DNA from: Okamejei kenojei | Taxonomy: Eukaryota | Reading direction: 5' to 3' | Length of the DNA stretch: 48,701 nucleotides | NCBI GenBank assembly: GCA_035221665.1 | Contig: CM069169.1 | Span: forward strand, 17,422,001 to 17,470,701 | Part shown: piece by piece, positions 38,433-43,967 of the stretch | Layout: every line of letters starts with the position of its first letter | Position numbering within the stretch: the first letter of the stretch is position 1 | The notes under the pieces: model-generated | What the model saw: only the letters and a program-made list of their open reading frames with translations | Told to the model about the DNA's origin: nothing | Database searches by the model: none | Translations under genes and position numbers: made by a program

Positions 38433-38726
38433 GTAATTGGGTTCTTTCCTCTGGCATTTTCTTTTTGAATATTTTGCGCTCAATGCTACATCTTCATCGA
38501 CTAGATCCAGATAGTGTATGTGTTCACTGTGTAGCCAGTAATCCAATGGTTTCTGATAACTCTCTGAATCTTTTTTGTTTTGGGATATCTTTCATGCCTG
38601 CACATGAAGGTCATTCACATCACTTAAGAGATTTATAACCTGCCCTACAAACCTTAGAACATGTAGAAAAAAATAAATAAACATTGAATGGTATGGATAT
38701 AATGAGGACTAAAAACATTGATTCAT

Positions 38727-41700
38727 AATAATGTAGGTGGTGTGTCAGGCGTATCATTTATTTCGAAAAAAAGATCCATTTGCTGTCTTAGATATATACT
38801 CCCTTGCGGGTCTTTTAAAATTTGGGGGTTATACCTCCAGAACGATGTGTTCTTAGACATGCCTTCTATTTTTAAAAAAAAGTTAGGGGGGAATAATCTG
38901 AAATCGTATATGTGTGGTATTTTGGGTTAAGAGTATACGGAATTAATTTTGTGTCTACCAGGAAATAATGTATACGTGAGTAAGTCTTGTGTACCGATGA
39001 ATAAAACGAATATTCCTTGCCTGTCGGATTTGCAATCCTCCAAACATCGGTTATATTTGTATTTTTTATATATGTGTTTAAAAGTTCACTAGTTTTAGAT
39101 TTCGTATTACCTCATTGTTTTTGTCTGGATTTATCTAAATAAGGATCTAAGACACAGTTAAAGTCTCCCCCAATTATAACATTATGGTAATTATATTCTG
39201 CAATTATATTCAAAATTTTATTTAAAAAAAAGCGGATTATCAAAGTTAGGGGCATATATATTTACCAATGTGATTGGGATTGCATGGATCTCACCGGTAA
39301 CTATCAAATATCTCCCATCCTTATCTGTTAAGGTATTTTTCTGTTTAAATGGTATATCTTTACAAATCATGATGGACGTGCCTCTGGATTTTGACATGTA
39401 TGACGAATGAAAAGTTTGACCTATCCAGTTGGCCCTCAATCTAACTTGACCTTGAACTTTAAGATGCGTTTCTTGGAGGAAGATAACATCTGACTTAAAT
39501 GCTTTCAACTGTGCTAAAATCTTACCCCTTTTAATATGTTCGTTAGCCCCCCTAATATTCCATCTGCAAAATGAGATTCCTCCCGATTTATTTTGTTTAG
39601 TGTCTTGCATTTTGACTAGGTTTAGTACCTATATATCTTGTGGTGCATCCATACCTCAGGTCTTTAAACAATGGGGAACAGTCAACCTACCAAGTTCAGT
39701 TTGTGGATTTCTTTTGCGATTATCCTTGAATTAAACAAAACACACATGTGATTAATTGTGATAGTAAAAAAAAATAGTAAAAGTGAGAATCTTTCAAAGC
39801 TTTTATTAGAGGTGTTATAATCTCATACCAAGCCTTTCAGAATTAAAAAAAAAATAAGAATGAACAACGGCAGCTAGAGGAACAAATTAGACAATTGGAT
39901 ATAGATAATGCTAAAGACCCGTCCATGGATAAACACAATAAAATATTAATACTAAAATTCAAATTAAATAAATTACTATCAGAGAAATTTATAAGATTAT
40001 TCCAAATTACAAGACAGGAGCAGTTTGAATTTGGGGAGAAGCCTCATAAACTTCTCGCACGCCAATTAAAAAAAAACGAGAAAAGGAACACACGATTTCA
40101 AAGATTAAATCAGACAAAGGGGAAGTATTAACATTACCGAATGAAATTAATAAAAGATTTGTGCAATTTTATGAGAATTTGTATACATCCAAAACGACAA
40201 TGGACACCAACACAATCACTGAGTTTCTGGATAATTGCAATCTTCCCAAACTAGAAATTGCAGGAACAAGAGGAATTGGGAGCACAAATCTCAAATAAGG
40301 AAATAGAAAAAACAATATTCTCATTAAAAAAATGGAAAAACACCAGGTCCCGACAGATTTAGTAATTAATTCTATAAAAGTTTTTACGATATATTTAGTC
40401 CTTGTCTACAGAAAATGCACACACACGCTTTCAGAGAACAAATATTACCTGATACACTAGCGGAATCTAAGATTACATTAATACTTAAGAAAGATAAAGA
40501 TGAAGAAGAACCTGGAGCCTATAGAGCTAACGCGTTGTTAAATACAGATCAAAAAATATTAGCAAAAATATTAGCAAGAAGATTAAGTAAGTACGCCATT
40601 AAACTAATACATCCCGATCAAACTGGGTTTATCCCTAAGAGACATTTATTTAATAATTTGAGATGTCTGCTTAATATAATGCACTCACACCAAACTAAAG
40701 ATCCAAATCTCGCAATTATTTAGCTGGATGCAGAGAAAGCATTCGATCAGGTTGAATGGAAGTATATGGTTAAGGTATTGCAAAAATTTCAACTGGGAGA
40801 GAATTTCATTCAATGGATTAAATTAATATATAATAAGCCAACGGCCAGAATATTAACTAATAATATTTTATCCACGAAATTTCAACTGTCAAGGGGTAAT
40901 AGACAAGGTTGTTCATTATCGCCATTGTTATTTGCCCTCATAATTGAACCACTAGCGGAAAGTATTAGAACTCATCCGAATATCCACGGATATAAGACAA
41001 AATATTCAAACAATAAAATATCATTATACGCTGATGATGTACCTTTGTACATCACAAAGCCTCATATCAATATACCCAATATTTTTAATTTAATTGAGGA
41101 TTTCGGTTCATTTTCAGGTTACAGAATAAACTGGAATAAAAGTGAAATCATGTCAATAAAACCGAAAGATTCTATAAATCACGTACAATTTCCTTTTAAA
41201 ATAGCTGGGGAAAAATTTAAATACTTGGGCATTGAAATTACTAGAAGATATCAAGACATGTTTAAAGCAAACTATAACCCTGTACTTAAGAAATTACATA
41301 GAAACATAGAAATTAGGTGCAGGAGCAAGTCATTCGGCCCTTCGAGCCTGCACCGCCATTCAATATGATCATGGCTGATCATCCAACTCAATATCCTGTA
41401 CCTGCCTTCTCTCCATACACCCTGATCCCTTCACCCACAAGGGCCACATCCAACTCCCTCTTAAATATGGCCAACGAACTGGCCTCAACTACCTTCTGTG
41501 GCAGAGAATTTAATTAAATTCTGGAAAACGCTCCCGATGTCCTTAATAGGTTGAAGAAGCGCCATAAAAATGATTTTTCTACCACAAATTCTATACTTGT
41601 TCCAATCAATCCCACTACATCTACCCAAAAAGTTTTTTTTTAAATTGGACTCGATTATTACAAATTTTATTTGGGATTATAAGACCCGTAGAATACAAAG

Positions 41701-43283
41701 ACCACACCTGAATAAACCCAAAGTAGTAGGGGGATTAGCACTCCCTAATTTTATGTATTATTATTGGTTGGTAAATATTAGAAATATGATTCAATTGTTG
41801 GATAATGCTCTTCATCAACCGAAATGGGTCATTATGGAAAAAGAGGTCTGCTCCCCCTTTAATATTGGTGCGATCCTTCTTTCACCAATGACGGTGAATA
41901 ATACAAACTACAACAAAAACCCAATTATACGTAGTACAATCAGAATTTGGAAACAAATAAAATACAATTTAAAATTAAGAAACTTATCATCTATCCTTTC
42001 TCCTATTGCTAAAAACCCTCTGTTTAAACCCTCGATTATAGACAAAGCATTCATACAATGGGAAAGAGCAGGAATTATAACTTTGGGAGATTTGTATGAT
42101 ACGGGAAAACTATTATCATTTAAACAATTACAACTAAAATACAATCTGGGTAACAATCAGTATTTTAAATATTTCCAAATATATGATTATTTGAAAAAAC
42201 ATGCACATGAATTTCACACAATGCCATTAGACTTACTAGATGAAGTAATAAATACAAAGGCGGAATCACCAAATTTAATTTCACATATATATAATATTAT
42301 ACTAAATGCAGAAATACAAACAACGGAAGGTATTAGAGGTGAGTGGGAAAACGAACTAAGCATAAAAATTTCCAATGAAAGTTGGAAAGAATACTTATTA
42401 AATGTGCACAAATGCTCAATTAACGTAAGACACACTTTAATACAATTTAAATTATACATATATTATACTACTATAAACTAAATTAAATAAATGTTTCCCT
42501 AACGTTTCACCGATTTGTGATAAATGCCACTGTCAAGAAGCTACTATAGCGCACTCATTCATCTTTTGTACAAAAATTCAAAGGTTTTGGTTTGAAATCT
42601 TTGAAATTTTCACAAAACTGTTTAAAATAAAAATGACACCAAAGCCAGAATGGATTATTTTCGGACTGACAGAAGGTAGTCCAGAATTAAATGCGTATCA
42701 AAATAATTTATTTGATTACGGCTTAATAATAGGAAAAAAACTAATCTTAAAATTCTGTAAAAATGCTCCTATACCAACATTAAATATGTGGATTTCAACT
42801 ATGTTTGAAACACTACATCTGGAAGATATGAGACTCCGCCTGGAAGGAAAATCAGAACGCTTCTTTTAGACGTGATCTGCATTTATAGAATTGCTGCAAA
42901 GATAGGGTGCAGGAGCACCTCGGGCCTTGGTAGGAGGGGATGAAAAACTATGGAGTTGGTGGATTACTTTTGGTGATATATATAACAGAGTAACTGGCTT
43001 TTTTTTCTTTTTTTTTCCTTTTCCTTTTTTTTGTTAGGGTCTATCTCTTAACCCCCTTTCTCTAATTCTTTGACCAAGGGTTTCTTCTCCCTTTTGGCAC
43101 GCTCTTTCACTATCACAACTCTTTTCATCTATTTCACTCTCTTTCTTTCTATTCTTTTTATTTAAAAGCCATAAAATTATGGGGTACAATGATTGTAACA
43201 AGATATGTGTGAAGTACATTGATGTATTTACCTTTACTAAATAAAATATTTTTTAAAAAATTAAAAAAAAAAAAAAAAAAAAA
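38727..43283 (+). mobile_element. L1-clade LINE, 5'-truncated with 5' inversion (inverted part ~38723-39783 on the - strand), poly(A) tail and TSD
   Basis: The - strand carries APE (WNIRG, FLQETH, NIYAPN, GGDFN). The + strand carries RT (HPDQTGF, LDAEKAFD, RQGCSLSPLLF, LYADD, KYLGI) and a CCHC motif CDKC…H….C at ~42516-42569. AATAAA is at 43240-43245 with an A-tract to 43283. The TSD is AAAAA(C/T)ATTGATTCAT. Confidence 0.95.
41296..41510 (-). mobile_element. Young CR1 3' tail nested in L1 ORF2
   Basis: Nearly identical to 26657-26868 (5 substitutions by my count). It interrupts the L1 frame between YNPVLKKL and LIKFWKTLPMSL. Confidence 0.92.
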
Positions 43284-43967
43284 TATTGATTCATGATAAC
43301 TTGTTTCTCTTGCACCTTAACATGCTGTGTGCATTAAATAACCTCAGCTGGTTGGCTTCTTGCCGCACCCCATGCCTTGAATAAACTATTTCTGAGGTGT
43401 TTAAGAAGAGCATTTAATTAAGAATTGACATGAGCTGTTGATGGGGATAATTATCGTATTCACCTCTTAACTTGAGAAGAGTTCCCCTGTGAGCAATATC
43501 TTGTAAGGTTGACTGATTTACTGAAAGTGCCATTTGTGTGCATTCTAAGTCTATGCCTTTAAGACAATTCATTTTGGGATAGTAAATCATCCTTCTGTAT
43601 AACTTTTTTTAACCCTTTTTCCACATGCCATGGATATGACTTTAAGTTTCAAGTAAAGTGGGATGATAGGATCTTTCCCCATTGCTTCCGTTGCCCATTT
43701 GTGCATTTTATAAATGACCTCCGTTCTCACTGAGGACTGGGATGTTCTTGGAGTATCCATCTCCTGTTAATGCCTTTGTTGCTCGTTACCACTCGGCTTT
43801 GTATGGGAGGGACCACAGAGCATAGTGCTTCGATTATACTTGCATTTAGTGTAATGCTTTACCTTCAGCATAGGAGGTGGATTAATGTCATTTCATTTTC
43901 TGTTGTGTACATTTGATCTTGTTGATGGAGTAATTAGTAATTCACAACAATTTCTTTCCTCATGCAG

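Follow-up and report, generated by a model that had tools for sequence, protein, structure and literature searches.

5′-inverted, or twin-primed, insertions of human L1 were reportedly treated by Ostertag and Kazazian in 2001. In the passages of the literature available to us, twin priming is described for mammalian L1 (PMC2912911, PMC4245944, 10.1101/2024.08.27.596794, PMC4476161, PMC13174262, PMC6007223), and 639 of 2068 human and chimpanzee L1 copies (30.9%) are given as 5′-inverted (PMC2912911). The accessible parts of PMC4245944 report one 5′-inverted insert of the zebrafish element Nimb-2_DR in chicken DT40 cells, and no 5′ inversions in these cells for human L1, nor for ZfL2-1; nearly all 5′ inversions came from human L1 in human cells, and inversion was concluded to depend on the element and the host. 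Five further papers (PMC5381506, PMC5389967, PMC3747384, PMC2718515, PMC11371274) contain, in the parts available, no relevant passage besides their reference lists. No report of twin priming in a fish or shark L1 was found in the sources covered; key papers, including the analyses of zebrafish L1, lie outside that coverage. From what is said of them, Ichiyanagi et al. 2007, Ichiyanagi and Okada 2008, and Kojima and Okada 2009 may already treat inversions of zebrafish L1.

The locus described here lies in the cartilaginous fish Okamejei kenojei, in a stretch of 48,701 nucleotides (GCA_035221665.1, contig CM069169.1, forward-strand positions 17,422,001 to 17,470,701) that we call the window and to whose first letter the coordinates refer. 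We confirm that window positions 38711-43299 are one L1-type LINE insertion with its 5′ part placed backwards between two target copies. Its parts are as follows:

38711-38731, plus strand: left target copy, at most 21 nt, known from the sequence, the search for a target-site duplication (TSD) and the empty site in three relatives
38724-38731, plus strand: microhomology, the 3′ end of the target being complementary to L1 RNA at family position 3052-3059; putative second priming site
38724-39786, minus strand: inverted 5′ piece with ~175 nt of inter-ORF spacer, the ORF2 start and the endonuclease domain (PF03372)
39784-39790, no strand: inversion junction, with the break at 39786/39787 and a 7-nt imperfect overlap
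39787-43242, plus strand: sense 3′ piece with the rest of ORF2 (reverse transcriptase, C-terminal CCHC motif), the 3′ UTR and AATAAA; broken frames
41301-41506, minus strand: nested 3′ end of a CR1-type LINE, 206 nt, a later insertion with no clear TSD
43243-43278, plus strand: A-rich tail, read from the sequence
43279-43299, plus strand: right target copy, with mismatches to the left copy at 43284 and 43295

The inverted piece carries the ORF2 start ATG at 39610 as well as stops and frameshifts; the ~175 nt that it includes upstream of this start were absent from the initial annotation, as were the nested CR1 end and the broken state of all frames. Like the human and chimpanzee twin-primed L1 copies in the accessible parts of the literature, the window copy has a TSD that encloses an inverted 5′ piece and a tailed sense 3′ piece, shows microhomology at its 5′ junction and carries a small deletion or duplication at the breakpoint. 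Unlike them, it resides in a non-mammalian host and has a duplication of up to 21 nt. Zebrafish Nimb-2_DR is likewise a fish LINE that gave a 5′ inversion, but it belongs to another clade and, in the passages available, represents a single case in a cell-culture assay.

Domain matches place an endonuclease (PF03372, E=1.7e-7) on the minus-strand piece and a reverse transcriptase (RT; PF00078, E=3.1e-25) on the plus-strand piece. The best PDB matches of this RT are human L1 ORF2p (E ~5e-43), with R2 proteins at 1e-12 or weaker, and a named homologue, ‘LINE-1 reverse transcriptase-like’, stands at 37%. The ORF2 layout comprises an N-terminal APE, the RT, which is closest to L1, and a C-terminal CCHC motif. 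Full-length copies of the family are ~6.3 kb long and carry an ORF1 of 356 amino acids, which in two of three copies shows a sub-threshold resemblance to the L1 RNA-binding domain PF02994 (E=0.012) and for which a search of the PDB gave no match. The family displays a poly(A) signal, an A-rich tail, a TSD of ~15 nt and a (C/T)T/AA-like site, with no fixed target; the TSD starts with A in 46 of 59 copies and is preceded by T or C in 46 of 59. By these sequence features the element appears to be L1-type, as assigned against references that include no named member of Tx1, the sister clade.

The initial annotation had allowed for the two parts belonging to different L1 families. Sister copies and equal divergence show that they come from one family. 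In a search of the own genome with window positions 38727-40300, most of the sister copies (40 scored of 5677 candidates) hold both pieces adjacent and in one orientation, and these scored copies are 92-96% identical to the window copy over the inverted piece. From fetched copies we computed a family majority sequence of 6.3 kb, from which 122 copies diverge by a median of 2.3%, a measure of the age of the family. The inverted piece is 97.0% identical to this majority, and the mismatches of the copy's pieces (26/1069, 26/1517 and 45/1748) correspond to equal divergence. The earlier claim of a precise 5′ inversion of an L1 thus stands, in the form of two opposite-strand pieces that are adjacent in sister copies.

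Alignment to the majority, which had been put forward as a check, maps the inverted piece to family positions 1999-3059 and the sense piece from 3061 onwards. The family sequence across the breakpoint is TTATTATG-G-GAATC, and one base has therefore been lost between the pieces. The inverted end, formerly placed at 39783, moves to 39786, and the sense start from 39784 to 39787, with the inversion itself upheld. Flipping the segment had been said to restore the ORF almost codon for codon; the pieces are indeed contiguous but for 1 nt, but all reading frames are broken, so un-flipping the 5′ piece would not yield an intact ORF2. The copy is dead, and nothing about it points to a function. The CR1 fragment nested in it belongs to a high-copy family, with copies 96-98% identical in the genome (40 scored of 2081 candidates), and is 97% identical to the 3′ end of a longer LINE copy at window positions 26654-26868; the closest named homologue of a neighbouring CR1-type protein is from a stingray (53%), an indirect pointer to a skate or ray host. 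The end of the window, positions 46000-48701, is C/T-rich, of low complexity and includes runs of N.

The TSD annotated at 38711-38726 and 43279-43294 is present over 16 bp with 1 mismatch; in its longer form of 21 bp (38711-38731 and 43279-43299) it has 2 mismatches. Its score has p=0.003 relative to 600 shuffled flank pairs, and 2 mismatches in 21 nt are compatible with the age of the family (~1 expected, P(≥2) = 0.26). The first A-run of the left copy is ambiguous with the tail, and its final 8 nt are common to L1. Unless some of the leading A's are tail, none of the 54 non-inverted TSDs used reaches the 21 nt of this duplication.

The target sequence had also been seen to continue as microhomology at the breakpoint, an observation that we can sharpen to 8 positions. 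In the left copy, the final 8 bases are perfectly complementary to L1 RNA 3052-3059. The right copy, for which an L1 origin is impossible, matches 7 of 8 positions at 3052-3059, and the eighth could form a G-U pair. The pairing at the breakpoint would have comprised either 8 Watson-Crick pairs or 7 of them and a G-U pair. Nowhere in the 6.3-kb family sequence except at the breakpoint can all 8 target bases pair (Watson-Crick or wobble), and a random flank 8-mer reaches at least 7/8 at a fixed site with a frequency of 0.0007. This pairing is unusually long compared to human cases, ~70% of which have 2-5 nt in the passages available.

The left flank is present in public runs under several organism labels. 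In organism B, contig X6 covers the unique flank and the target and extends as far as 38786, which is 55 nt beyond the shared 8-mer, and a second study (X8) has the same left junction with a short deletion. Organism A contigs from two studies end at 38753, under the 31-letter threshold; the best one may come from the very sample that gave the window. An empty site in relatives, to which the initial annotation had looked for confirmation, was found in organisms F, G and E, whose contigs align up to 38731 and then continue into the right flank; in one F contig the two flanks are directly joined. For the empty-site contigs, 5 of 10, 7 of 11 and 10 of 14 letters that differ from the window are listed, and letters near piece ends (38716, 38727) fall outside these. 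The flank on the right of the insertion is single-copy in the own genome, and no paralogous empty site was found there. As the site is empty in F, G and E and the junction is present in B, the insertion occurred after those lineages split and before the A/B split.

These data bear on the earlier concern that the inversion might be a misassembly. Hundreds of similar copies (389 exact 3′ UTR matches) could lend themselves to an assembly error, or to two independent head-to-head insertions at one site, and bridging of the inner junction by independent contigs was not seen among the contig pieces listed, a minority of all pieces. The left junction, however, recurs in organism B in two studies, which together with the empty site in three relatives excludes misassembly of this junction. 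Furthermore, the presence of one tail and one target duplication, the 1-nt precision and the equal divergence of the pieces argue against either event, and we consider both to be extremely improbable.

Judging from the anatomy of its junctions, the locus is very probably a single L1-type insertion generated by twin priming. ORF2p would have nicked the bottom strand in a T-run, with copying started from the poly(A) tail, and the top strand would have been nicked at most 21 nt away before the first cDNA was complete. The 3′ end of the top strand would then have paired with RNA 3052-3059 and primed a second cDNA, extended by ~1060 nt in the direction of the 5′ end. The first cDNA would have halted one base short of the second primer, the RNA would have been removed, and the two cDNA ends would have been joined with little or no exact microhomology. 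The CR1 fragment would have been inserted afterwards, with the decay of all frames.

At the inner junction (39786/39787) we found 0 nt of exact microhomology; 5 of 7 overlap positions are shared, with one mismatch to each side. The 8-mer is absent from this junction. This argues against a later genomic inversion of an ordinary 5′-truncated copy, in which repair or recombination would have used the 8-mer of the target and its inverted counterpart in L1, because a reciprocal event would put the 8-mer at both junctions. Later rearrangements do exist in the family (the flipped 3′ part of L142 and the antisense pieces in L053, L065 and L101), but one break here sits exactly at the target boundary and the inverted form is already common to organism B. 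The later flip is thus already largely refuted, and we regard it as very unlikely.

Inversion could also have taken place during insertion by another route, in which the first cDNA switches template, or the host end-joins a broken cDNA or second strand, and the target end pairs to L1 DNA. The sequence alone cannot separate RNA from a sense-strand DNA partner, extra templated bases in L144 and the multi-piece copies L049 and L097 would be in keeping with such a route, and other template-switch or repair routes could yield the same product. However, a single base separates the end of the sense piece from the pairing site, as would follow if the first reverse transcriptase ran into the second primer or was blocked by it; in the available parts of 10.1101/2024.08.27.596794, a sense piece that stops near the second priming site is described as the twin-priming pattern. 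We give such a route little credence. Twin priming, proposed in the initial annotation, is supported by the junction anatomy and by the same pattern in ~8% of sister copies.

This frequency comes from an exact 23-nt pattern in the 3′ UTR with 389 matches in the genome, the first 100 of which in position order (contigs C1-C5) were all fetched. Eight of these 100 (L041, L082, L092, L097, L115, L144, L148 and L149) are 5′-inverted (95% interval 3.5-15%), in a sample that includes three duplicate pairs, each from one insertion, and five copies whose 5′ end lies beyond the fetched stretch (L086, L101, L121, L129, L154), and in which inverted pieces shorter than ~30 nt would escape detection. The count of inverted versus truncated copies that had been suggested thus covers this sample of 100 of the 389 matches. 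The ~8% found here differs from the 30.9% of human and chimpanzee L1 (Fisher p=1e-7), in a comparison across different methods and copy ages.

Gaps or overlaps at the breakpoints of the inverted sisters are small, ~0 to 90 nt. A clear TSD is missing in 5 of the 8 sampled inverted copies; among the 55 copies with a significant TSD, three are inverted (L082, L144, L149). L082 (16-nt TSD, 3-nt microhomology) and L144 (15-nt TSD, 2-nt microhomology) are clean cases. A second sample of 39 copies picked by similarity, six of them overlapping with the first, adds L051, which is inverted and has a 14-nt TSD, and the complex L049. No clean microhomology was found in L149 and L051.

TSD and microhomology statistics were derived from 59 of 71 significant copies; eight were dropped by hand as duplicates or doubtful, and the rest fell outside 9-21 nt. 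The TSDs of the 54 non-inverted copies are 9-18 nt long with a mode of 14-15, similar to the 14-16 nt given for humans in the passages available. Microhomology at the 5′ end is at most 6 nt in 42 truncated copies and measures −5, 0, 2, 3 and 8 nt in five inverted copies, which are too few for a test. A search for very short inverted 5′ pieces in the 80 nt to the left of non-inverted copies gave 4 short matches, none convincing. L164 was rejected as such a piece, as it abuts an older L1 subfamily. This subfamily (~65% identical) lies head-to-head with a short copy at L164:575-6500, and the first 14 nt of its 5′ end are common to the young family.

Two of the inverted pieces (L041:2072-3105 and L115:2401-2979) stop just a few bases short of the 5′ end of the element, which suggests that synthesis of the second cDNA went on nearly to the beginning of the RNA. 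L097:2523-7068 contains two successive inverted pieces, in the manner of twin priming plus 5′ switching. It resembles products of ‘twin priming and 5′ switching’ from human tumours in the accessible parts of 10.1101/2024.08.27.596794, in which a first inverted piece is followed by another that comes from further upstream; unlike these products, L097 is without a clear TSD, and the window copy is of the simple form. In L049:2907-7466, sense, two inverted and sense pieces are enclosed by a 15-nt TSD. L148 shows ~10 nt of microhomology at its inner junction and no TSD, and its right flank resembles the reverse transcriptase of another retroelement, which may be DIRS-like.

The family has other rearrangements as well. 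At L142/L179/L180 (G000:C4:36.58-36.60 Mb), a full-length family L1 has its last 1.8 kb and tail flipped, which is not the twin-priming pattern, and the same locus holds a ~10.8-kb insertion. Short antisense L1 pieces inside sense copies (L053:6807-6879, L065:4619-4770, L101:5510-5616) resemble templated repair insertions. Internal deletions of 0.1-2 kb are frequent (e.g. L002, L009, L017, L104), often with microhomology of a few bases, and paired copies with an identical TSD (L093/L094, L118/L119, L158/L159) are segmental duplications of one insertion. Considering the L142 flip and the common internal deletions, some of the eight inverted copies may be later events.

Taken as a known mechanism in a new lineage, with a rough count, the finding is real and well supported. 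The analysis contributes the site found empty in relatives, a junction shared across species, a pairing over 8 positions at a unique site and an initial, approximate inversion rate. We lean, by a modest degree, towards the broader view that (i) twin priming belongs to the routine, ancestral behaviour of L1 in jawed vertebrates and is not a mammalian trait, (ii) it accounts for ~5-10% of insertions of the cartilaginous-fish family, including multi-switch forms so far described from human tumours, and (iii) the second cut at this locus may be placed or selected by RNA pairing (21 nt compared to the usual 14-15). Repeated copies of the twin-priming type in a cartilaginous-fish L1 would take the mechanism back to the jawed-vertebrate ancestor, or would mean that any L1 with a ~15-nt staggered cut is capable of it, and the comparative rate (~8% versus ~31%) could be tested against host repair factors.
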